Assembly: GCA_001816655.1 (NCBI GenBank)
Contig: MHCP01000025.1
Location: 78,428 to 142,427 of the forward strand
DNA from: Candidatus Woykebacteria bacterium RBG_13_40_15
GTDB taxonomy: Bacteria > Patescibacteriota > Microgenomatia > Woykebacterales > RBG-16-39-9b
Direction: 5' to 3'
Length of the DNA stretch: 64,000 nt
Part shown: piece after piece, positions 5,472 through 38,494 of the stretch
Layout: each line of letters starts with the position of its first letter
Numbering within the stretch: position 1 is the stretch's first letter
Program-made: the position numbers and the translations under genes
Notes under the pieces: generated by a model
Told to the model about the DNA's origin: nothing
Databases searched by the model: none
What the model saw: the letters and a program-made list of their open reading frames with translations, nothing else

Positions 5472-6200
5472 TTGCCTGAAACTAAGCATGCGAAAGAATT
5501 AACAGCTCTGGAGCATCGTAGCCTTTTGCTTGCTCTAAGAGAACCCTCTTCCACGTTCAGACAGATCGTGGAGGAAATCGAAGGAGAGCGTTGGTGTCGT
5601 AACGCAGCGAAAGAAGATCTGCTATTGTGGATCAAAGAAGCTCTTCAAGGTGCAGTAGATAAGATCGGTCGTAGATGGGCTAACACACACCCACGTAGCT
5701 TCCCTGGAGAGCTTAAGCAAAGATATTTCGACCTAAACGCATTCCGTGATGCAATGGCTCATATAATCGCTTGTTGGGAGGAAGAGCTCTCTGATAGAAG
5801 GTTGGAAGAGGAGCAGATTACTCATCAAGAGGCGAATCTTCCAGGTGGGTTTGAGCCCCCTCGGTTCGAAGCAGAACCAGTCCCTGTCGAAGAAGAAGAA
5901 GAAGAAGAAGAAAGGATGGTGGTAGAAAGCACTTCGGGTGAGATCACCCATCCCGTAGCATCTGGTCAGACGCAACAAATTACCCCACCTCGGGTCTGCC
6001 CAAGATGCAGGGGTACTATGATCGCCGAGCGTGATTGGTACGGCTCTTACAGAAGCTGCCTCAATTGTGGCAATGTTCAAGAGCTAGATTCTGCCAACAT
6101 TGCTCGTGCGGAAGAAATACTCACTCCAAGTGGAGGTGGAGACAACGAAAGGAAGAGAACGAAAGGCCCAAGCACAAGGCACGGGACCTTAAGGCTTTAG
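5472..6200 (+). CDS. hypothetical acidic protein with C-terminal C4 zinc ribbon, in a higher-GC segment
   Basis: It has CPRCRG...CLNCG and an internal poly-Glu run encoded by (GAA)8. GC is visibly higher than the flanking genes. Confidence 0.35.
   Translation: MPETKHAKELTALEHRSLLLALREPSSTFRQIVEEIEGERWCRNAAKEDLLLWIKEALQGAVDKIGRRWANTHPRSFPGELKQRYFDLNAFRDAMAHIIACWEEELSDRRLEEEQITHQEANLPGGFEPPRFEAEPVPVEEEEEEEERMVVESTSGEITHPVASGQTQQITPPRVCPRCRGTMIAERDWYGSYRSCLNCGNVQELDSANIARAEEILTPSGGGDNERKRTKGPSTRHGTLRL
5888..5911 (+). repeat. (GAA)8 trinucleotide microsatellite inside the CDS (poly-Glu)
   Basis: gaagaagaagaagaagaagaagaa is visible in the sequence. Confidence 0.9.
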
Positions 6201-7068: not shown

Positions 7069-7701
7069 TTGGGGGCTAAATTGAAAAACTTACACAGGTA
7101 TTATTCGATCTTCTCTTACAAGTTTACGCAGTTAATTATCGCTTGTACCGCCGTTTTTGTTCTATCGTTGGTAGTAAAACTATTTCCGATTTCACAACTA
7201 GAGATAGCCTTATTCCGTTTGATTAATCACCTACCAGGCGTGCTTTATTTACCTTTAGTTATAATAATGCAGGCTGGTGCTTATTTTTCGATACTTATCT
7301 TTGCAACTATTGCTTTTGTTTTTAAGAAAAGGTTTCTTGCAGCAGAGTTACTTTTTGGTGGGACGTTAGCTTGGATTCTAGCTTGGGCTATAAAGTTAGC
7401 TGTTGTTAGACCTAGGCCTTTTGAAGTTTTAAGCCAAGTTTCATTGCGTGAATCAAATGTATATGGTTTTGGATTTCCTTCCGCGCACGCAGCAGTTGCC
7501 GCCGCTCTTGTAGCTGTCGCAAGCTTTCACTTCAAGAGTTGTTATTCATGGCTACTTTGGGTAGCAGTATTGATTGTTGCTTTTGCAAGAATTTATATGG
7601 GAGTTCATCTTCCGCTTGATGTAGCGGGAGGAGTTGCCTTGGGTTGGTTTGCGGGCCTTTTTACCCAATTAATTTTCAAATCTACCAGAAAAAGCGATTG
7701 A
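7069..7701 (+). CDS. PAP2-family phosphatase (undecaprenyl-diphosphatase-like membrane phosphatase)
   Basis: The PAP2 motifs KxxxxxxRP (KLAVVRPRP), PSGH (FPSAHA) and SRxxxxxHxxxD (ARIYMGVHLPLD) are present, with multiple TM helices. Confidence 0.75.
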   Translation: MGAKLKNLHRYYSIFSYKFTQLIIACTAVFVLSLVVKLFPISQLEIALFRLINHLPGVLYLPLVIIMQAGAYFSILIFATIAFVFKKRFLAAELLFGGTLAWILAWAIKLAVVRPRPFEVLSQVSLRESNVYGFGFPSAHAAVAAALVAVASFHFKSCYSWLLWVAVLIVAFARIYMGVHLPLDVAGGVALGWFAGLFTQLIFKSTRKSD

Positions 7702-8209: not shown

Positions 8210-8271
8210 GGTGTACTAAATTTATCCTGAGCGAAGTCGAAGGAAAGCGAAGGTTTAGAACTTTTTGTGCC
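8210..8271. repeat. Dispersed repeat family, copy A (partial)
   Basis: ggtgtactaaatttatcctgagcgaag...gaaggtttagaactttttgtgcc shares the 3' block (GTAGGAGAAYYTTTTRGTGC-like) and the ttatcctgagc block with copy B. Confidence 0.6.
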
Positions 8272-8399
8272 GACATCTAACCAGCCGCTTCTAGAATCTT
8301 TAAAACAACTTTATGATGTTTTTCTGAATTTCTCAATTACTTAATGTTATATATTAGTATTGATTTTTTCAACTTAAAAAAGTATCATGCTATTATACG

Positions 8400-8768
8400 A
8401 CTAAGGTAAAACCAACATCAACGCTAGCTTTAGAAGAAGCAAGGGAAGCAGTAGTAAAAATTAGGACCTTAAAGCCTCTCCTTTCCCCAATGGACTAGGA
8501 AACTCTTGTTACTCTAATGGACAAGGAATTGATGGGGCACCTAGATAAAAGCCTGAAAGAGGCTGAAAGGGGTCAACTGGAACCTCTAAAAAACATTTTA
8601 ATTTAGATGTATCAAAGAGTTACTACTCTCTCAGCTAAGCGTTCTCTTAAAAAGCTCCCCTTGAAATTACGTGAGGAAATCATAAACGCTACCAAGGTAC
8701 TTGAGGAGAATCAGCTAGAAGGCGAAAAACTTTCCGGTAGTCTTAATTTCCTGTACTCCTTCTTGTAA
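8400..8768 (+). pseudogene. Decayed type II toxin–antitoxin remnant (antitoxin-like fragment plus truncated RelE/ParE-like toxin)
   Basis: Hand translation of 8607-8768 gives MYQRVTTLSAKRSLKKLPLKLREEIINATKVLEENQLEGEKLSGSLNFLYSFL. This is the N-terminal half of a RelE/ParE fold (KLSG.L.G.Y) that stops before the catalytic C-terminus. Upstream fragments (...LEPLKNIL) are antitoxin-like. No intact ORF of 60 aa or more is present. Confidence 0.4.
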
Positions 8769-9068
8769 TAATTCATTTTGCTGATAAAAGAGAAAACTTC
8801 TACAAGAAGTTGCGTAACCTTTTCCGCTAGATTAAAGACAAGTCTGTTTATTCTTTTAGGACTAAACCCTTCTTTGAAAACTTCTTCAATAGGGAACTTT
8901 TATGCTCTTATTTAAACAAAGAAAAACGACCCATTTCTGAGTCGTTTCTCCTCCTAAGAAAACCAATTTCTTGATTTGCTTAGGGAAAGGCAGGTCTCAC
9001 AGGCAGAGCCTCAAGCCTCTCCTTCAATTTCCTAAAGGATGGGTTTAGTTCGACGAGGCAGTTTGTGC

Positions 9069-9383
9069 TTAAGAAAGCCGCTCGTTCAGACTGTCAATTG
9101 CTACGGAGATGGCCGCATGGCGGTAATCCAGTTGCTCTAGCTCCTGAATTACCCAAGGCAATGCTTCCTCTAGGATAATCATTGCCTCCAGAGTCCGAAG
9201 CTGACTGCATAGGCCTCCGATTTCCTGCAGTCTGCCTCTTTCCAATTCCTCAGCAGACATGAATCTTCCGCCGCTCCTGACCCCACCTCTTGCCATAGCG
9301 GGCTCAATTCCCTTCAGGTTCTCGCAGTGCGTTTTTATAGAGGTTATTACTGCCTCGTGTGCAGGTTTTAGTTCTTTTGGCAT
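9069..9383 (-). CDS. hypothetical protein in a higher-GC segment
   Basis: A 104-aa ORF with no recognised motif. Confidence 0.25.
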   Translation of the reverse strand: MPKELKPAHEAVITSIKTHCENLKGIEPAMARGGVRSGGRFMSAEELERGRLQEIGGLCSQLRTLEAMIILEEALPWVIQELEQLDYRHAAISVAIDSLNERLS

Positions 9384-9527
9384 CTCTCACCTCCCTTTCT
9401 TGATTGCTAGATTATATCAAACTATGTCAAAGTTGTTTGCAATAGATTGATGCAGCCTTACACCCCTGGGGTGTTTTAGGTTTACACCTGCGGTCGTTTA
9501 TATTATTTTTGATTTGTAGTGATGATT

Positions 9528-9577
9528 ACAAGGACGGGCCTTGCAAGCTGACAAGCTCATAAATGAAAAAGGAGTAA
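9528..9577. repeat. Repeat family RepA, copy 1
   Basis: acaaggacgggccttgcaagctgacaagctcataaatgaaaaaggagta is about 48 bp and nearly identical to 12549-12596. It contains the perfect hairpin GCAAGG-ACGGG-CCTTGC followed by an AAGGAG tract. Confidence 0.8.
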
Positions 9578-9613
9578 TTCGTGCGTCAACCCCGCGGGTT
9601 GGAAGCTAAATAG

Positions 9614-9640
9614 ACAACGAAGGGGTTGGTTGTTTAAGGG
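9614..9640. repeat. Repeat family RepB, copy 1 (partial)
   Basis: acaacgaaggggttggttgtttaaggg matches the copies at 10751-10790 and 11442-11477. Confidence 0.7.
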
Positions 9641-9709
9641 ATCAAATCCTCTGTAATACCTGTAAAAGCACTTGAAAATCGTCTAAAAATCGTCTAAAAT
9701 TAGTCTAAT

Positions 9710-10747
9710 ATGTTTAATCCTCACTACACTATCACAAACCAGATTTTGGCAAATATCAAAAGGATTGCCGATTTAATAAACGAGTTGAACCATAGGCGCT
9801 TCCCTCATGTCGTTTTGGTTGAGTTGGAGAAAACCGCAAGAGCAGTTTCTACCTATGCCTCAACCAGCATTGAAGGAAATCCTCTCCCCTTAACTGAAGT
9901 TAAAAAAATTCTCAAATCAAAACCATCTCATGTTCGAGAGAGTGAAAAAGAGGTTTTAAATTATAACCAAGCATTACAAGATCTAAACAAAAAACTTGAA
10001 GAAGGTAAAGTTAAATTGTCCCTTGATTTAATATTAAAGATCCAAAAACAGGTGACTGAGGGTCTCTTACCACCTTTTGAGTCTGGACTTTTAAGGCAAA
10101 AACCTGTTGTAATAAACGACCCACGGACCAAACAAGTTAAGTTTCTACCTCCTGATATAAAAGATGTAGAACCTTTTTTAAAAGATTTAATAGGATTTGT
10201 AAACGCTAGCAGAGATAAAATCGATCCACTTATTTTAGCCGGTATATTTCATAAACAAATGGTAATAATCCATCCATTCACAGATGGTAACGGCAGAACT
10301 ACTCGTCTTGCAACAAAAGTACTTCTAGCTGAAATGGGATTAAATACCTTTAATCTGTTTAGCTTCGAGAATTACTACAACAGAAACGTTACAAGGTATT
10401 TTCAGACTGTCGGAGAGTTTGGAAACTACTATGATTTACTTGATAAGATCGATTTTACACCTTGGCTTGAGTATTTTACTGAAGGAATCATAGACGAGCT
10501 CCTCCGAATACAAAAACTCCTTCCGGAGGTTGGGATAAGCCCTGAAACGAAGCTTCAAACCTACCACCTAAAGATACTTGGTTTTATTGGAGAAAAAGGG
10601 TTTATTACTGACAGCGATTATGCACAATTGGGCACCCGTGCAAAAGCCACAAGAGCACTTGACTTTCAAAAACTACTGGAGCTTGGTTTAATCGAAAGAA
10701 AAGGAAAAGGCAAGGCAACTTACTATATTTTAAGAGAGAAACAATAA
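9710..10747 (+). CDS. Fic/Doc-family protein (Fic_N plus Fic core plus C-terminal winged-helix)
   Basis: The Fic catalytic motif HPFTDGNGRTTR matches HPFx[DE]GNGR. The C-terminus looks like a wHTH (KGFITDSDYAQLGTRAKATRALDFQKLLELGLIERKGKGKATYY). Confidence 0.8.
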   Translation: MFNPHYTITNQILANIKRIADLINELNHRRFPHVVLVELEKTARAVSTYASTSIEGNPLPLTEVKKILKSKPSHVRESEKEVLNYNQALQDLNKKLEEGKVKLSLDLILKIQKQVTEGLLPPFESGLLRQKPVVINDPRTKQVKFLPPDIKDVEPFLKDLIGFVNASRDKIDPLILAGIFHKQMVIIHPFTDGNGRTTRLATKVLLAEMGLNTFNLFSFENYYNRNVTRYFQTVGEFGNYYDLLDKIDFTPWLEYFTEGIIDELLRIQKLLPEVGISPETKLQTYHLKILGFIGEKGFITDSDYAQLGTRAKATRALDFQKLLELGLIERKGKGKATYYILREKQ

Positions 10748-10750
10748 GTC

Positions 10751-10790
10751 TGTAAATAAACAATGAGGGGGGGGGGTGGTTGTTGATTGA
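10751..10790. repeat. Repeat family RepB, copy 2 (carries a G9 homopolymer)
   Basis: tgtaaataaacaatgagggggggggtggttgttgattga. Confidence 0.7.
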
Positions 10791-10850
10791 CATAGCTAGG
10801 TATTATATACTTATAAATGTATTGTCCAAAATAGTTAAAGAGATACTGAC

Positions 10851-11171
10851 ATGAAACAGATAAATCGACTACCAAAACTTCCAAAAAAAATATTAGTTGA
10901 GATAAAAAAGGCTGATTCTGGAGATTTTTTAGCTTATATCCCCGAGTTTGACATTTTCACTGAGGCTGATAATCCCGCACACTTGATTCTCCAAGTTAAT
11001 GATTTGATATATGCTTACTTTGACGTCCCTAAAAAATATCAAGCACAACTTCATTTTTTCCCTCCGTTAGAAGTCTTGGAGGATTTGTGGGGTATTAGAG
11101 AGGTAAAACTACCAAAAGTCCAATTTAGCTCCTTCTACACCCCAAACAGCCACCTGCTCCAGTGCGTATGA
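10851..11171 (+). CDS. HicB-like antitoxin-family protein
   Basis: KKILVEIKKADSGDFLAYIPEFDIFTEADNPAHLILQVNDLIYAYF fits the HicB_like/UPF0150 pattern (I.K.EDG.Y.A.VPEL.G..T.GDT.EEA). It overlaps the downstream HicA-like gene by 10 nt. Confidence 0.5.
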   Translation: MKQINRLPKLPKKILVEIKKADSGDFLAYIPEFDIFTEADNPAHLILQVNDLIYAYFDVPKKYQAQLHFFPPLEVLEDLWGIREVKLPKVQFSSFYTPNSHLLQCV

Positions 11172-11410
11172 AATCATTTGGCTCCAAAGACTTAATCAGA
11201 TGTTTGCTTTGTTTAAAGTTTAAAGAAGGCAAACAGGTAGCGTCATCTCACATAAAATACCATTGTCCTAAGAAAGCAGCTGTTGGAACCCGCCCATTCA
11301 TAACCGTTATTCTAGGTAGAAAAACGTATGATCCGGTAACTAGGGGTAGATATTTGAACCAAATGAAAAAACTGGGATACTCTCTTGAAGAAATAAAAAA
11401 GTGTATGTAG
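11162..11410 (+). CDS. HicA-like mRNA-interferase toxin
   Basis: ...SKDLIRCL...KQVASSHIKYHCPKKAAVGTRPFITVILGRKTYDPVTRGRYLNQMKKLGYSLEEI carries the conserved SH at the YcfA/HicA GSH-motif position and the C-terminal 'I..agls.eef' tail. Confidence 0.55.
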   Translation: MRMKSFGSKDLIRCLLCLKFKEGKQVASSHIKYHCPKKAAVGTRPFITVILGRKTYDPVTRGRYLNQMKKLGYSLEEIKKCM

Positions 11411-11441
11411 CTACTGTGTTTTAACAGAAAAAATTTTTCGC

Positions 11442-11477
11442 TGTAAATAAACAATGAGGGGGTTGGTTGTTTAAGGA
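11442..11477. repeat. Repeat family RepB, copy 3
   Basis: tgtaaataaacaatgagggggttggttgtttaagga. Confidence 0.7.
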
Positions 11478-11530
11478 AATTTTGCCAACGAAAAAGGGGC
11501 ACTCCTTGGTTGATGAGTACCCCTGTTCGT

Positions 11531-11815
11531 CTACTCCCCTTCGGCTGCCGATGATCTCTGTGAGATGTCTTCTCTTTTACGAAAGGCCTTCTCGATTTCG
11601 CTTCTTGCAACCCTCTCCCAGCGCTTAATCACGAAGGGTGTGATTATACCGAGTATCAGGACTACAACCAGCAAGACTAGTCCTACATGTGGCCGGAGGA
11701 ATAGGACAATCAATGTCCCGATTACGCTGCTGCATGTGCTAAAGAGCCAGAAACCCGTTAGCCTTTCTCTCGTTTGGGTTACCCTCTCTTCTTCTTTTCT
11801 CCTTGTCGTCATTGT
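11531..11815 (-). CDS. small two-TM membrane protein (about 95 aa) in a GC-rich segment
   Basis: This is the C-terminal part of the 229-aa ORF-track entry, starting at the internal MTTRRKEE. There are two clear hydrophobic helices. The upstream part of that ORF overlaps the 177-aa ORF out of frame. Confidence 0.3.
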   Translation of the reverse strand, partial: TMTTRRKEEERVTQTRERLTGFWLFSTCSSVIGTLIVLFLRPHVGLVLLVVVLILGIITPFVIKRWERVARSEIEKAFRKREDISQRSSAAEGE

Positions 11816-11853
11816 GGTTCTCCCTCTCCGCTTTCCCGACTCCTGTCCGCGTG

Positions 11854-12387
11854 TTACTGAGAGTGCTTTCTCCCAAAGAGGAGACGGGCGCCCAAGATAA
11901 CAAGAATAAGATGGGCAAGAATTGTTCCCTTTACTCCTCTGAATTGGGCTTCTCGTGCTTCCGGTTGCGGTGCCTCTGTTTGCAGGAGTTGCAATTGAGC
12001 TGCATCTACCATCACCGCTCTTACTGCTGTGCCCAAGGCGAGTCGGTAGACACAACCTCCCCCCACTACTACACAGACGACCGCTGCCAGCAAAAGCGCA
12101 GCCCCAAGGGAGTTCCCGGGATTGACGTGATTCTCGGAATCGAGAATCGTAAAGCCGAAGACCGTCAAGGCTAATGTTGCTGCGATTGTAAGCGAAATAA
12201 TGATAGGCAGGATTTTCCATTCGCGTCCGCCGCCTATATGCTCTTCATCTTCGGCTAACTGTTTGGCTAGACGAAGACGATCCGAGATTGGCAATTTCGA
12301 TGCCCCGACGATTGCCCTACTAAGTAGGGTTAGTCGGTCTAGGACCTCTGCCAACTCGATTTCATCCGAGTCCCTGGCGTTAACCAT
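11854..12387 (-). CDS. membrane protein (177 aa) in a GC-rich segment
   Basis: An acidic N-terminal region of about 50 aa is followed by three or four hydrophobic helices. Confidence 0.35.
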   Translation of the reverse strand: MVNARDSDEIELAEVLDRLTLLSRAIVGASKLPISDRLRLAKQLAEDEEHIGGGREWKILPIIISLTIAATLALTVFGFTILDSENHVNPGNSLGAALLLAAVVCVVVGGGCVYRLALGTAVRAVMVDAAQLQLLQTEAPQPEAREAQFRGVKGTILAHLILVILGARLLFGRKHSQ

Positions 12388-12548
12388 GGGATCACTTCCT
12401 TTCGCTACTGACTATTTCCTCTCCCTTTTCTTGAGTTATTTGCTGGATTTAATTGTGCTGTTTTTGATTGTAGCACAAGGATTTATTTTTTGGAAGTTAA
12501 GCGCTTATTGTGAGTTGGTTAGGGGTTGAACTCATAAATTTTATAACT

Positions 12549-12596
12549 GCAAGGACGGGCCTTGCAAGCTGACAAGCTCATAAAAGAAAAGGAGTA
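12549..12596. repeat. Repeat family RepA, copy 2
   Basis: gcaaggacgggccttgcaagctgacaagctcataaaagaaaaggagta. The shared tttttgatt(t)gtag block also appears upstream in both copies. Confidence 0.8.
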
Positions 12597-12640
12597 CCCC
12601 ACCACCTGTGTTTGGTAAGGTACTCCTCGCGTTCTCTCTC

Positions 12641-12817
12641 CTAGCTTCCTTGGTATTCTGGTCGGATTGCTATTATGAGCAGAACGGCCAGAACAGCGAT
12701 AATGACTACACTAAACACTGCAATCAGGGGAGGAAGAAAACAAACGGTCAAGCTGCTTAGAACGCCAGCAGAAAGACCTATCCTTATTAGTTTTATTTTC
12801 CACTGGATGTATTTCAC
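12641..12817 (-). CDS. possible small membrane protein (58 aa, GTG start), below the ORF-track cutoff
   Basis: Hand translation of the minus strand gives VKYIQWKIKLIRIGLSAGVLSSLTVCFLPPLIAVFSVVIIAVLAVLLIIAIRPEYQGS. Confidence 0.2.
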   Translation of the reverse strand: MKYIQWKIKLIRIGLSAGVLSSLTVCFLPPLIAVFSVVIIAVLAVLLIIAIRPEYQGS

Positions 12818-12904
12818 TTCCCTCCCCCTTCCTTGTGAGATATCAGCAGACCGATGGCTGCAAAAGCGGCGAAGAGTAAGACCGCTACTTGGTCTCGTCT
12901 TTTC

Positions 12905-13198
12905 TTACTTGCCGAAAGGGCCGAAGGAACATAGAGTCGGCAGGCTCCCTAAGGTCGTCGTTGTGGCTTCGGCTTTTCCGCATGCTTCCACCCGCGTGTT
13001 GGTTACCAGTTGATAACCACCGAAGACAAGCACTCCGGCTACTAGGATTACTCCTAGGTACCGAGTACCCTTCCTAGCCTTTTCGAAAAAGGCCTTCAGG
13101 CGCGGGCCGAAAGCCAGACCCAAACCGAGTAGTGCTACCAATCCAAAAAAGACCAGCAGCGTTAGGTTGCAGGAGTTGATTGCGATTGTTAAGAGCAT
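12905..13198 (-). CDS. small membrane protein (97 aa) in a GC-rich segment
   Basis: Two or three hydrophobic helices; MLLTIAINSCNLTLLVFFGLVALLGLGLAF... Confidence 0.3.
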   Translation of the reverse strand: MLLTIAINSCNLTLLVFFGLVALLGLGLAFGPRLKAFFEKARKGTRYLGVILVAGVLVFGGYQLVTNTRVEACGKAEATTTTLGSLPTLCSFGPFGK

Positions 13199-13685
13199 CG
13201 ATCTCTCCTTTCGATTTTTTGCTCTTTTCTAGAACCTGCCTGCTTGTAATTGTTACTAGTTTAAAATTATAGGGTGTAAAAGTCAATAGGTTTAGGGTCT
13301 ATGCTCTAAAATTGAGGCTAAAAAATGCTGTGGTCAATAACAAGGATCGGATTTTCTTCAAAAAAGGAAAAGGCAGACCAAAAAGATGCTTCATGCGAAT
13401 GCATCCGGCCTGCCCATCAGTCCGTGGGTGCTGGCTCTCTCTGTTGCGGTCCCTGATAAAGCTGGACTGCGCCTTATCTTCCACCGCGAGCGGACACCGC
13501 AGGTTTCGCGCGTAGCGGACGATCGCCTCTCTACTTCTAAGTAAGAGGCACAAATCGCTGGGCCCCTAGCAGTTAACTGCATCTGCAGATCGGTAGAGAA
13601 TACCGCTGCGTTGACCCATTTGCGCCGCGTTGTGCGAAGCCAGGCAAGTATAACAAAGAAAAGTAGGAAAGTCAATACTATGGGG

Positions 13686-14011
13686 TGCTGAGGTTGATTG
13701 GTGCACTGTATTAGATTTTACTTTAAGACTTTTTAACTGGCAAAAAGTATAAAAACCAAACAAACCAGAGTAACCAGAGTAAATCCTTCCAGTCTTGGGT
13801 TAAAATTCCTGGGATGCCCAAAAAACCGATAAATCCTAAAAAACCAAGTGTCCAGGTTTTTTTCATAATTTTATTATACACCGAGTTCCGAATCATGAGT
13901 GATGCTTGTCCTGAGCTAGTTCACACTGAGCTGAGTTTATCCTGAGCAGCTCGCAATGAACTCGCTGTGAACTGAAGTGAAGGGAAGTGAAGTAGGAGAA
14001 CTTTTAGTGCC
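13686..14011. repeat. Dispersed repeat family, copy B (long form, about 326 bp)
   Basis: The 5' end tactatggggtgctgaggtt and the 3' end gaagtaggagaacttttagtgcc match copies C and D. The internal cctgagc blocks match copy A. Confidence 0.6.
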
Positions 14012-14019
14012 TATATTTG

Positions 14020-14056
14020 AACAAAAGAAAACGGCGATAAGTTTCCCTATCGCCGC
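14020..14056 (-). terminator. Rho-independent terminator for the minus-strand gene ending at 14077
   Basis: The hairpin GGCGATA-GGGAAAC-TTATCGCC (minus-strand sense) is followed by GTTTTCTTTTGTT. Confidence 0.5.
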
Positions 14057-14076
14057 ATTCAGAATGTAACAATCCC

Positions 14077-14415
14077 TCAGTCCAGAGCCTCCCGATCACT
14101 GATAGAACGAACCAAGGGCCTGCCAAGGCGCGATGCCAGCACCATTTCGTGGGCAACAAAGCTGCCCATCGTCTCGATTAGGTCTATTGCTAATCGGCCT
14201 CTTGCTTCCGGGCTCTTGCATCTGCAGCTACAGATGATTGCTAGAAGAGCCAGATCCTCGGCCATTTGCCCTGCTCTCTCAGGGGCTATCGGTTCACCAT
14301 GGTTCAGAAACGATTCCCTCCGGGCCTCTTCGAGCAGCTCTCTTGCTATCGATATTATCTCCTGCTCGTCTTCACTTCTCTGAGCTTTGAGGCCCCTTCT
14401 GCCTCCATATCCCAT
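14077..14415 (-). CDS. hypothetical protein (112 aa), GC-rich
   Basis: ORF only. It contains a CSCRC cluster. Confidence 0.3.
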   Translation of the reverse strand: MGYGGRRGLKAQRSEDEQEIISIARELLEEARRESFLNHGEPIAPERAGQMAEDLALLAIICSCRCKSPEARGRLAIDLIETMGSFVAHEMVLASRLGRPLVRSISDREALD

Positions 14416-14457
14416 GGCAGTCTCCTTCTTTCTACTGGCGTTAGAATTACAAGTTGT

Positions 14458-14892
14458 TCAGCCCGCAGCAACCTTTGGTTTTACGCGTTTTAGATGAACT
14501 GGATGTATAAACCAGCTCATTGACCGAGCAAGGAAAACACACTTCTCGTCCTCTTTCCCGAAATCTACCAACACGTAGGTGGGGAAGATGGTTTCATTTT
14601 CCCTGACCATCATAGTCCATTCGGAAAACTCTCCGATAAGGCGGACATCATCACCGTGGTAGTACTGATGAAATGGGTCGCCCCAAGACTCCACTCCGTG
14701 GCGGTCGGGTGGTTCACTTGCAGGCTTCAGGCCAGATTTTTGCATGTAGATAGGTAAGCCGTCTGTACGGCCATCCGCATCATATGCCAGGACAGCCACC
14801 AAGCTGCCTTGGTCCGCCTCCACACGAAGGGTGGCATCCTGAAGGCGATCTATGAGCCTGAACAACTCTACTTTCGTGGGTTGATTCCGCAT
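14458..14892 (-). CDS. hypothetical protein (144 aa), GC-rich
   Basis: ORF only. It lies on the same strand as its neighbours with short gaps, which suggests an operon. Confidence 0.35.
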   Translation of the reverse strand: MRNQPTKVELFRLIDRLQDATLRVEADQGSLVAVLAYDADGRTDGLPIYMQKSGLKPASEPPDRHGVESWGDPFHQYYHGDDVRLIGEFSEWTMMVRENETIFPTYVLVDFGKEDEKCVFLARSMSWFIHPVHLKRVKPKVAAG

Positions 14893-14966
14893 TACTTGCT
14901 CCCTCCCTTCCTTGTGTACTATTAGCTGTTTCCCTACGAACTGCTGGCACAGTTTCTATACGCTAG

Positions 14967-15326
14967 CTACCTGACAGTTTTAACTTTCCATATACCAGAT
15001 CCTCTCGATGATGGTGCGACCAACAGGTCCCCACTTATAAGTGGCCTTGGTCGTAACCTGTTTGATATGTGTGTCTTAGGGCAGGCTAATCGAAACGAGT
15101 TCTCATTTCGTCTAGCTCGATATCCACAACCAATGTCAGTGTACACTTCCCGACCATCGGTTATCTCCGCGAGCTTACTAGAAGTAATCTCGGTATCTCT
15201 AGGTATTCTCGCAAGATTGCCGTACGTATAGTCAAAATCCCACTCTGTCAAAAGAATGGTAACCGGGTTTCTACTGGCCGTTTGTTGGGTTTTTTTGGCA
15301 AACCGCCCAAAGATCCTAGATAGCAC
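14967..15326 (-). CDS. hypothetical protein (119 aa), GC-rich
   Basis: ORF only. Confidence 0.3.
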   Translation of the reverse strand: MLSRIFGRFAKKTQQTASRNPVTILLTEWDFDYTYGNLARIPRDTEITSSKLAEITDGREVYTDIGCGYRARRNENSFRLACPKTHISNRLRPRPLISGDLLVAPSSRGSGIWKVKTVR

Positions 15327-15430
15327 AATCGTCTCCTTTCGAGTGTTAGAAATCTTTCTCCCAAAGCCGTCTAGGAACCTATTTAACTGTTAACGCAGAT
15401 GATTATACCAGAAAGGAATATAAAATCAAG

Positions 15431-15511
15431 TACTATGGGGTGCTAGGGTCGTCTAGTGTACGACGTTACTTGTCCTTCGTAGCTTTAGCGAAGTAGGAGA
15501 ATCTTTTGTGC
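15431..15511. repeat. Dispersed repeat family, copy C (compact complete form, 81 bp)
   Basis: tactatggggtgctagggtcgtctagtgtacgacgttacttgtccttcgtagctttagcgaagtaggagaatcttttgtgc. Confidence 0.7.
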
Positions 15512-16871: not shown

Positions 16872-16948
16872 TGGGGTGGGTGAGGGGGTTCGAACCCCCG
16901 ACCTTCCCCTCCACAGGGGGACGCTCTACCGATTGAGCTACACCCACC
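16872..16948 (-). tRNA. tRNA-His (anticodon GTG) with encoded G-1
   Basis: G-1 plus acceptor GTGGGTG/CACCCAC, anticodon stem TCCCC/GGGGA with loop CTGTGGA, T arm GGGGG-TTCGAAC-CCCCT, discriminator C, CCA encoded. Confidence 0.85.
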
Positions 16949-16951
16949 AAG

Positions 16952-17419
16952 TTATCCAATAAATCCGTGTTTAAGATAATGGCAGTTTCTGCAAAGTAAG
17001 GCTAAATTAGAAACATCGTTATTCTTTCTATCTCCATCTCTATGATGAACTACCAAGACTCGCTCGTCAGAAAAATTACAACATTCACATTTTAACACTT
17101 TTGAATGGTTAAATAAAACTTTCCTGTAAGAACTAACTCCTGTCCGCCAATTGGGATTATTTATGCTGAATCTTAAATTTTTATTTGCCCAGCTGGCATG
17201 GCAAGAATAGCTACAAAAGAATAAATTACTTTTAGATTTCTTGAATTGAGCTGGGGTTCTGTAAAGTGCATTACCACAATGTGCGCATTTTACAGTCCTT
17301 CCTTTTTTCTGGGCTTCAAACTTACATTTATCCGAGCAAAATTTACCCCACCCAATTTTAATATGTCTCGGCTTCGCATAAAATTTTCCGCTGCAAATTT
17401 TACAATTTAACCAAGGCAT
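16952..17419 (-). CDS. HNH endonuclease with N-terminal Cys-rich zinc-finger region
   Basis: HHRDGDRKNNDVSNLALLCRNCHYLKH is an HNH motif. Multiple CxxC pairs lie upstream. Confidence 0.75.
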   Translation of the reverse strand: MPWLNCKICSGKFYAKPRHIKIGWGKFCSDKCKFEAQKKGRTVKCAHCGNALYRTPAQFKKSKSNLFFCSYSCHASWANKNLRFSINNPNWRTGVSSYRKVLFNHSKVLKCECCNFSDERVLVVHHRDGDRKNNDVSNLALLCRNCHYLKHGFIG

Positions 17420-34618: not shown

Positions 34619-34695
34619 AATCAAGACCCTAATCGAGTCTTGTTGTTTCACAATCAAGACCCTAATCGAGTCTTGTTGTTCAAATAATCAAGAGG
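34619..34695. repeat. Tandem 34-bp repeat (2.3 copies), each with an internal dyad
   Basis: aatcaagaccctaatcgagtcttgttgtt occurs twice, followed by a partial aatcaagagg. The dyad is CAAGAC...GTCTTG followed by TTGTT. It lies between the uvrA 3' end and the histidine-kinase 5' start. Confidence 0.7.
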
Positions 34696-38342: not shown

Positions 38343-38398
38343 TCTCGGGGATGCCACAGAATAGGTAGATCTGTTGGTTCGAATCCAACTCCCCAAGA
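38343..38398 (+). other. tRNA-like minihelix (acceptor-like stem plus T arm)
   Basis: TCTCGGGGA...GTTGG-TTCGAAT-CCAAC-TCCCCAAGA. Confidence 0.35.
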
Positions 38399-38417
38399 CA
38401 AGATCAGACGGAACGGT

Positions 38418-38494
38418 GGGTGATTAGCTCAGACGGTTAGAGCAGCAGCCTTATAAGCTGTACGTCGCAGGTTCGAGTCCTGCATCACCCACCA
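38418..38494 (+). tRNA. tRNA-Ile (anticodon TAT)
   Basis: Acceptor GGGTGAT/ATCACCC, D arm GCTC/GAGC, anticodon stem GCAGC/GCTGT with loop CTTATAA, T arm GCAGG-TTCGAGT-CCTGC, CCA encoded. A UAU anticodon is uncommon in bacteria. Confidence 0.7.

Follow-up and report, generated by a model that had tools for sequence, protein, structure and literature searches.

In a 64-kb window, the whole stretch of DNA analysed here, we examined a module of about 3 kb in which two families of short repeats, RepA and RepB, accompany a Fic gene, a hicB/hicA-like gene pair (hicBA) and two genes for small membrane proteins. The host, Candidatus Woykebacteria RBG_13_40_15, is an ultra-small groundwater bacterium represented by a metagenome-assembled genome (MAG) from the Microgenomates group of the Candidate Phyla Radiation (CPR). 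The module looks like a small accessory-gene islet, real but fairly ordinary, whose repeats resemble local seams of past DNA insertions rather than a new mobile element or RNA gene. It belongs to an already known kind of locus, the repeat-flanked accessory islet. The cargo is mobile and the repeats record recombination, whereas movement of the whole 3-kb RepA-to-RepA unit is unproven and no new mechanism has been demonstrated. The islet lies in core chromosome: the window encodes UvrA, UvrB, UvrC, LexA, Lon, LysA, PyrD, enolase and 13 tRNAs, and no recombinase, integrase or transposase, tyrosine recombinases included, was found among the open reading frames (ORFs) scanned across it.

Repeats of the islet

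The key evidence of recombination lies around hicBA. The repeats and gene units of the cargo are the following.

9522-9577, plus strand: RepA1, truncated RepA copy at the boundary between the GC-rich region of a 104-aa gene and the AT-rich cargo
9607-9639, plus strand: RepB1, 33-nt repeat with a plus-strand hairpin, upstream of the Fic promoter
9672-9700, plus strand: putative Fic promoter, TTGAAA-17-TAAAAT, with tandem AATCGTCTAA boxes
9710-10747, plus strand: Fic, predicted SoFic-type class II AMP-transferase with motifs STSIEGN and HPFTDGNGRTTR
10721-10785, plus strand: left copy of a 61-65-nt repeat, comprising the final 27 nt of Fic coding sequence, 5 nt and RepB2 (10753-10785)
10783-10811, plus strand: putative hicB promoter, TTGATT-17-TATACT
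10851-11171, plus strand: HicB-like antitoxin candidate, 106 aa, from fold matches only
11168-11410, plus strand: HicA-like toxin candidate, 80 aa, from fold matches, with an invariant His28
11412-11476, plus strand: right copy of the 61-65-nt repeat, comprising a decayed Fic 3' end and RepB3 (11444-11476)

RepB occurs as three direct copies, at 9607-9639, 10753-10785 and 11444-11476. RepB1 and RepB3 match at 30/33 positions. RepB2 is degenerate (70% ungapped identity), with a run of ten G residues and a 3' end replaced by the -35 box of hicB. It begins 5 nt past the Fic stop codon, and RepB3 begins 33 nt past that of hicA. When the 32 nt preceding RepB3 are compared with those preceding RepB2 (27 nt of Fic coding sequence plus 5 nt), 21 positions match. 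This score is reached at 2 of approximately 64,000 positions of the window, namely the RepB3 site and the query itself, against a null of 8.7 ± 2.5; the flanks of RepB1 match the same query at 7-9 of 32 positions. When translated, the remnant beside RepB3 reads Y-C-V-L-T-E-K, where Fic reads Y-Y-I-L-R-E-K. The hicBA unit (10782-11411, from its promoter to one base past its stop codon) is consequently enclosed by two blocks of at least 61 nt, each composed of a Fic 3' end and RepB. Because decayed Fic coding sequence adjoins RepB3, this duplication is, judged from the sequence, a recombination scar rather than a product of convergence. The source of the remnant is ambiguous, because the resident Fic and a foreign allele match it equally well (17/21 each): either the end of the resident gene was duplicated or a second Fic cassette was replaced.

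A preliminary description of this DNA had reported RepA twice and RepB three times, with RepB preceding Fic, separating Fic from hicB and following hicA, and these counts and positions were confirmed by coordinates. It had also called every repeat intergenic. This is generally so, except that the 61-nt unit shared by RepB2 and RepB3 reaches some 32 nt farther upstream and takes in the final 27 coding nt of Fic.

As plus-strand RNA, RepB1 and RepB3 form one common hairpin, in which stems of 8 bp and 2 bp are separated by a 1x1 internal loop and capped by a GGGG loop. The predicted energies are -8.7 kcal/mol for RepB1 (z -5.3) and -6.8 kcal/mol for RepB3 (z -5.7), and none of 200 shuffles folds as well. 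The minus strands barely fold (-2.2 and -2.0 kcal/mol, respectively). The three differences between the two copies are all transitions in the 5' arm, and pairing is kept through G-U. RepB lies just outside the DNA that Fic and hicBA each have in common with their relatives. The -35 box of hicB follows a few bases after the G10 homopolymer of RepB2 (10767-10776), a run that could act as a slipped-strand site altering the promoter context or could reflect sequencing or assembly uncertainty.

RepA is present as two direct copies, 9522-9577 and 12543-12596, which are identical at 54/56 positions (one substitution and one extra A) and share an identical core of 35 nt (9529-9563 and 12550-12584). 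They lie 3,021 bp apart and bracket the module, as att-type direct repeats would. With a 36-nt core and up to 3 mismatches, the window contains these two copies only (0 expected). RepA includes a perfect 6-5-6 palindrome. The arm GCAAGG given for it in the preliminary description holds for the second copy, and the first copy reads ACAAGG. The right part of the module, where RepA2 is embedded, contains the following features.

11491-11524, minus strand: likely terminator of the convergent 94-aa gene, hairpin GGGGTACTC...GAGTGCCCC followed by TTTTT, read from the sequence
11531-11815, minus strand: 94-aa membrane protein, with a weak PspM/Rv2743c-like match below the cut-off
11854-12387, minus strand: 177-aa membrane protein, orphan, OGY23469.1
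12543-12596, plus strand: RepA2, embedded copy, whose right end forms the T-tract and 3' half-stem of a minus-strand terminator
12589-12628, minus strand: terminator of the 58-aa gene (12641-12817), 16-bp hairpin with a TTCTTTTAT tail, half of it inside RepA2

The terminator hairpin at 12589-12628 has 16 pairs, 7 of them G-C, and a fold energy of -42.9 kcal/mol (z -5.1). On the same strand, the RepA2 palindrome holds a -35-like TTGCAA, and a -10-like box, a weak consensus match, lies just beyond the repeat. The two RepA copies are located 139 and 156 nt upstream of minus-strand start codons. RepA1 keeps the half-stem alone, has neither of the partner sequences found beside RepA2 (the terminator arm and the -10 box), and sits exactly where the 104-aa gene region on its left (47-52% GC) meets the AT-rich cargo. 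Because both partner sequences are missing from RepA1 and because of its position at this GC-rich/AT-rich boundary, RepA2 looks like the copy in its native setting and RepA1 like a truncated, apparently function-less one.

This embedding bears on the earlier proposal that RepA is a transcribed leader or small RNA. The proposal is left unsupported, since the opposite strand accounts for RepA2, which there provides a -35-like box and part of a terminator (T-tract and half-stem), and RepA1 lacks the partners. At gathering thresholds Rfam 15 reported nothing but tRNAs, and it gave no match at E up to 5 within 9350-12750, and neither RepA nor RepB was retained as a known RNA.

Other candidates at the RepA copies were set aside. 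A possible leftward extension (TTTTTGAT(T)TGTAG near both copies) is not significant, as 90 of 500 shuffles reach its score. A mini-ORF of 10 codons (9581-9613, plus strand) has a GTG start 6 nt past the AAGGAG that ends RepA1 and runs into RepB1; RepA2 has no equivalent at the same spacing, and the mini-ORF is probably fortuitous. The same probably applies to two minus-strand ORFs of 20 codons (9526-9588 and 12547-12609), which begin in the RepA copies, share their first 11 residues (MSLSACKARPC) and lack a Shine-Dalgarno sequence, and to a plus-strand 50-aa ORF past RepA2 (12608-12760), which has a hydrophobic N-terminus, its Shine-Dalgarno sequence in the stem of the terminator hairpin and its GTG in the loop. 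The latter was considered as a type I toxin-like gene and put aside, given that the hairpin and T-tract read as a canonical minus-strand terminator of the 58-aa gene.

The Fic and hicBA units and their relatives

The cargo differs in composition from its surroundings. Fic and hicBA have 32-41% GC, compared with 47-54% in both flanks. The 94-aa and 177-aa genes, which make up about 40-50% of the module, are GC-rich like the flanks and unlike the AT-rich cargo. The two membrane proteins noted earlier in the module are indeed present; they are, however, encoded on the opposite strand and flank-like in composition, and the 177-aa protein is an orphan. Its sole relative is a sequence of 98% identity in sister-strain reads (SRR4030042). 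The 11491-11524 hairpin has one mismatch in its stem and is missing from the list of the consensus terminator scan. In general, terminator-like and promoter-like consensus matches do not exceed shuffle expectation.

The Fic protein is identical to OGY23466.1. Its translation contains the catalytic motif HxFx(D/E)GNGRxxR, as HPFTDGNGRTTR, and the N-terminal inhibitory motif (S/T)xxxE(G/N), as STSIEGN. It matches Pfam Fic at 1.2e-17 and, over its full length, the SoFic profile of PADLOC (E 3.6e-42, residues 12-342 against profile positions 25-352 of 361). The PDB matches are FICD and SoFic, with the SoFic chains aligned to residues 135-337. Because the NCBIfam SoFic score is 58.9 bits and does not reach the equivalog cut-off of 550 bits, the profile matches identify the protein as SoFic-like and not as an equivalog. 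SoFic-type proteins are class II Fic AMP-transferases that are reported to be toxic and to act as a single-gene abortive-infection defence against phages (PMC12249575).

More than 120 relatives of Fic at 78-83% amino-acid identity were found in Levy-, Davies- and Roizmanbacteria, other Patescibacteria and one genome labelled Armatimonadota; none was found in viral contigs. The sister strain has Fic at 98% identity. In every fetched context Fic is a lone gene with different neighbours. By BLASTN, the homology of these relatives to the window covers 9671-10741 only, from the -35 box to the stop codon. The promoter with its tandem AATCG(T/A)CTAA boxes is the sole conserved flank and is kept in five unrelated contexts. 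The Fic ATG lies 9 nt past the -10 box, so the mRNA would be nearly leaderless. From these alignments, Fic appears to be a single-gene cassette that carries its own operator and has been transferred widely. A SoFic-type Fic with a conserved leaderless promoter-operator, found at about 80% identity across many Microgenomates lineages, is worth knowing in its own right.

One sub-lineage of Fic has a conserved extra block of about 158 nt upstream and another of about 48 nt downstream (5765-5919 and 7087-7134 in locus L001, 5839-5995 and 7049-7096 in locus L011, two unrelated genomic contexts). The upstream block holds a long inverted repeat, GATCCTTGTGG...CCATAAGGATC. These blocks of L001 and L011 are absent from the window and have no Rfam match.

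The labels of the other pair depend on predicted structure. The hicB and hicA reading frames overlap by 4 nt (ATGA), and this overlap is kept in relatives. An AlphaFold2 model of the HicA-like protein, built with relatives, has a mean predicted local distance difference test score (pLDDT) of 89.7 and the topology H-E-E-E-H-H. Its top three PDB fold matches, 6g26_F, 6g26_E and 4p78_C, are all HicA chains (probabilities 0.98, 0.97 and 0.85; E about 0.1-0.2). The 80-aa protein is predicted to have the alpha-beta-beta-beta-alpha fold of HicA together with its conserved histidine, His28 being invariant in 7 sequences (6 relatives). The single-sequence model of the HicB-like protein is weak (pLDDT 54.6), and its top fold matches are of the HicB type (2yzt, probability 1.00; 3k6q; 6g1c). 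Neither protein has a match in Pfam, NCBIfam or PADLOC (E up to 1-10, depending on the library). A phmmer search against the PDB gave nothing for the HicA-like protein and 2yzt alone, at E 1.3, for the HicB-like protein. The HicB/HicA labels of the preliminary description are accordingly reasonable on predicted folds, though the three profile libraries lend them no support. The pair recurs elsewhere as an overlapping two-gene unit, without RepB. If the models are right, this is a branch of HicA/HicB that is invisible to current sequence profiles, which is of interest independently of the islet.

Further copies of the repeats were searched for within the 64-kb window, which is part of a 146-kb contig, and in other collections. 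No RepA or RepB was found elsewhere in the window. Sub-motif and profile hidden Markov model (HMM) searches of the window and 20 related loci revealed no further copies, with the next-best E above 3. Exact cores (a 22-mer for RepA, a degenerate 26-mer for RepB) had no match in 185,579 species-representative genomes, JGI metagenome contigs and IMG/VR; the source MAG is not in these collections, as its own RepA went unmatched, and the absence is therefore silent on the remaining genome. Together, these searches show that RepA and RepB are not widespread. The preliminary description would have been contradicted by repeats common across the genome and unconnected to accessory genes; in the 64 kb inspected, no such pattern was seen. 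Module DNA has no match among plasmids and phages. The relatives of Fic and HicBA elsewhere have no flanking direct repeats of their own, and RepB as a component of the Fic or hicBA cassette was rejected, being absent from all 20 fetched loci and their flanks.

Origin of the repeats

The suggestion of a mobilised or duplicated cassette survives in part: cargo units circulate horizontally and the decayed Fic end records recombination, while common movement of the 3 kb from RepA to RepA has not been shown. The reading we favour, tentatively and with a little less than even confidence, is that insertions or replacements followed one another at a hotspot to form the islet and left RepA and RepB behind as duplicated junctions. 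Within it, we infer in what order the events took place, by which enzymology, and what RepB does; what the data show directly is that the repeats exist and are unique within the DNA searched, where the cassettes begin and end, that a decayed end of Fic is present, that RepB folds on one strand, and that RepA2 is embedded in its surroundings. The Fic unit and the hicBA unit, each self-promoted and horizontally circulating, would have been inserted one after the other into a non-coding gap between GC-rich, lineage-specific membrane-protein genes. RepA and RepB would be the seams, local sequence duplicated as DNA was inserted or replaced. RepB would serve as a 3'-end hairpin or insulator of each transcription unit, and may have been copied along with the Fic end as hicBA came in or took the place of a second Fic cassette. 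RepA would be 56 nt of the spacer that separates the 58-aa and 177-aa genes and contains the terminator and promoter. RepA1 could have arisen by a single crossover of a RepA-carrying circle (Campbell-type), in which case the whole 3,021-bp segment is the insert, and recombination between the RepA copies would remove 3,021 bp, so that the 104-aa gene again has an intact terminator upstream of it. It could also be a junction duplication from illegitimate insertion of the 1.9-kb Fic-hicBA block alone. The data do not separate these two origins.

Several points weigh against the junction-duplication reading. Circle integration is weakened by the 94-aa and 177-aa genes, which resemble the flanks and would make an insert from RepA to RepA compositionally chimeric. 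Insertion of the 1.9-kb block is weakened because 56 nt must then be copied from 3 kb away, which is ad hoc. The window has no recombinase, and the 17/21 match of the Fic remnant to both possible sources leaves its origin ambiguous. RepB, at 30/33, is better conserved than the adjoining remnant, at 21/32, which suggests selection or gene conversion beyond a passive scar. The 98% sister strain is known as read-level proteins only, with no contigs for an empty-site comparison, and, of the genome, 64 kb were covered in the search for further copies. We consider movement of the 3-kb unit unproven because there is no recombinase in the window and no second occurrence, and part of the module is flank-like.

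A decayed fragment next door fits a cassette hotspot at the islet. At 8517-8768, two abutting ORFs of 29 and 53 aa occur, the latter weakly ParE-like and covering the first half of the profile; on this match, they probably represent a decayed ParDE-type toxin-antitoxin pair. Few mobile elements are recognisable in ultra-small CPR genomes. If the repeats are indeed seams, CPR genomes still acquire and swap defence and toxin cassettes at a hotspot, and the insertion history is legible from junction duplications.

The other explanations differ in what they make of the repeats. RepA and RepB could be selected cis-acting elements, shared among genes as regulatory parts and duplicated for reasons unrelated to mobility, with RepB a 3'-untranslated-region hairpin, terminator or insulator and RepA a palindromic operator or a terminator-promoter module of the 104-aa and 177-aa genes. 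The strand-specific RNA hairpin of RepB, its pairing-preserving substitutions and its position 5 and 33 nt past stop codons are what such elements would display, as are the 6-5-6 palindrome of RepA and its distances of 139 and 156 nt from minus-strand starts. A further repeat family of the region, family X (below), demonstrates that shared upstream blocks do occur here. Yet identity of 54/56 far exceeds what an operator needs (family X has 60-75%), RepA1 lacks the terminator partner and the -10 box behind the apparent functions of RepA2, and RepB has no U-tract. The terminator and promoter consensus matches are not above shuffle expectation, and the decayed Fic coding piece at RepB3 speaks for duplication by recombination and not for convergence. 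We regard this explanation as unlikely, if worth keeping in mind. It is less likely still that RepB is the site of a trans-acting site-specific recombinase (Xer/dif-, integron- or pdif-like), possibly at the replication terminus, with [RepB]-Fic-[RepB]-hicBA-[RepB] as the product of successive integrations. The direct repeats do divide minimal promoter-to-stop units, RepB3 combines the 5' half of RepB2 with the 3' half of RepB1 like a hybrid site, and RepB can be read as 11-6-11 (AAATAAACAAT-GAGGGG-GTTGGTTGTTT) with 8/11 dyad symmetry. Plasmids of Acinetobacter carry modules with Xer sites on either side (PMC11705084, PMC12907356). However, such symmetry is unremarkable in A-rich sequence, RepB departs from the dif consensus (no ATAA-N6-TTAT), and the window contains no canonical dif-like site. 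RepB also lacks attC architecture (33 against at least 57 nt, with no RYYYAAC/GTTRRRY), no IntI, Xer or other recombinase is found in the 64 kb, the relatives of Fic and HicBA have neither such a site nor flanking direct repeats, and the shared block of 61 nt exceeds the length of a core site. The location of RepB3 in a convergent gap, near a switch in skew and gene-strand bias, would also suit this explanation. The cumulative GC skew reaches its maximum at 8269, where gene-strand bias switches from about 70% plus on the left to about 75% minus on the right, which is suggestive of a replication terminus near the islet. The terminus is not established, as strand-independent skew changes merely from +0.01 to -0.06 and only 8 kb (6 kb of it coding) lie left of the peak.

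The repeats might instead belong to genome-wide families of short dispersed repeats, like repetitive extragenic palindromic (REP) sequences or miniature inverted-repeat transposable elements, that happen to be clustered here, which we consider improbable. RepB does resemble REPs as a short extragenic imperfect palindrome at gene 3' ends, the inspected DNA is 64 kb from a 146-kb contig, and absence from collections that apparently do not include the source genome is uninformative for the host. Five copies within 3 kb with none further in 64 kb, even by profile HMM, speak against dispersal, as do the lack of terminal inverted repeats and short target duplications and the absence of copies from the other genomes and metagenome contigs scanned. 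An assembly artefact, in which strain variants or unrelated fragments were joined at short shared sequences, is very improbable. The sequence is a MAG, sharp shifts in composition coincide with the repeats, and the repeats are k-mer-like in length; but a chimeric join leaves one copy per junction, while the RepA copies differ at 2 positions and the RepB copies at 3 or more. Moreover, the gene units are intact with promoters and terminators sensibly placed, and both Fic and the 177-aa gene occur in the sister strain at 98% identity.

A bolder possibility, which we rate as a long shot, is that RepB is the site of an unrecognised CPR-specific cassette system, integron- or Xer/pdif-like, in which promoter-to-stop units are exchanged by a recombinase encoded elsewhere, perhaps at the terminus. 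We know of no cassette-exchange system in the CPR group. If true, such a system would explain the spread of Fic at about 80% identity across many lineages of Patescibacteria. RepB as a recombination site would then define a cassette-exchange system, and the finding would matter much more.

Known systems and surrounding features

By analogy, the locus appears closest to integrase-less islets with att-type direct repeats, and its likeness to integrons, to clusters of attC sites lacking integron-integrases (CALIN) and to pdif modules seems superficial. Integrase-less islets, remnants resembling cis-mobilisable elements, likewise carry toxin or defence cargo of foreign composition between direct repeats of tens of bp. 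As here, one repeat copy is set in native sequence, and recombination between the repeats would excise the insert precisely. The present locus differs in having no integrase in the window and no tRNA target, in that about 40-50% of the bracketed DNA is native-like, and in a nested RepB family that subdivides the cargo. An integrase gene next to the att site, the mark of integrative elements, was found neither in the module nor in the window. An island anchored at tRNA-His (16872-16947) was rejected, with no repeat of the tRNA end in the window. A gene for an HNH endonuclease (16952-17419) adjoins this tRNA.

Self-promoted toxin-antitoxin cassettes are typical of chromosomal integrons. In integron and CALIN arrays, as here, a short similar site in the same orientation follows each minimal unit. 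The attC sites of such arrays are 57-141 nt long with R''/L''-L'/R' boxes and paired L boxes, whereas RepB has 33 nt without this architecture. RepB as attC was rejected, with no RYYYAAC/GTTRRRY in register and a hairpin centre that is not the centre of any 57-nt candidate. IntI was not found in the window, and the cargo relatives have no attC-like site. The pdif modules of Acinetobacter and integrative elements that exploit Xer are bounded by sites of about 28 nt (PMC11705084, PMC12907356, PMC6744903). Like the present units, Xer modules are small, often hold toxin-antitoxin pairs between repeated sites and possibly lie near a skew switch. They differ in that RepB has no similarity to dif, all sites here are direct, and no xer gene is visible in the window. 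Scans with the generic, E. coli, B. subtilis and core consensus, for a 28-nt 11-6-11 site with conserved inner ATAA/TTAT arms, gave no site near the locus, and RepB as a canonical dif was rejected.

REP sequences, bacterial interspersed mosaic elements (BIMEs) and Neisseria intergenic mosaic elements (NIMEs) are short imperfect palindromes past stop codons, strand-specific as RNA, which plausibly stabilise or terminate transcripts. RepB is alike as a short imperfect palindrome directly 3' of stop codons. Members of those families number tens to hundreds per genome, whereas the 3 copies of RepB all lie within 2 kb and the remaining 61 kb contain none. As for the cargo, Fic resembles SoFic in its full-length PADLOC match and both motifs, and differs in its NCBIfam score of 58.9 against 550 bits; for E. 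coli Sofic, a small downstream gene of the AS1 type has been reported. The hicBA pair is like type II HicAB in the predicted HicA fold with conserved histidine and, more tentatively, in an overlapping upstream partner with HicB-like fold matches, and differs by the lack of a sequence-profile match and by its antitoxin-first gene order.

The islet is surrounded by GC-rich patches (47-55%) at 9000-9450 and 11530-15400, which encode small, mostly hydrophobic minus-strand proteins without detectable relatives. Outside these patches the genome has 33-42% GC. Family X, the third repeat family of the region, occurs on the minus strand at 8216-8283, 13931-14023 and 15487-15511, with the core GGCACWAAARRTTCT....CTTCRCT. 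Its copies lie upstream of three minus-strand genes, encoding a rhodanese-like protein, a 57-aa DUF3796 protein and a 119-aa protein, and in two of the three cases an extended -10 promoter, TTTCTGnTAnAAT, comes next. Family X is probably a shared regulatory block.

Farther away, a perfect 29-nt tandem duplication (AATCAAGACCCTAATCGAGTCTTGTTGTT twice, spaced 33 nt) of a terminator-like hairpin is located at 34619-34680, between uvrA and a histidine kinase gene. In the region of 38372-38401 and 38418-38494, just upstream of the tRNA cluster, a sequence resembling a tRNA T-arm and 3' end (TGTTGGTTCGAATCCAAC...) is called by neither ARAGORN nor Rfam. The tRNA-Ile beside it has the uncommon anticodon TAT.

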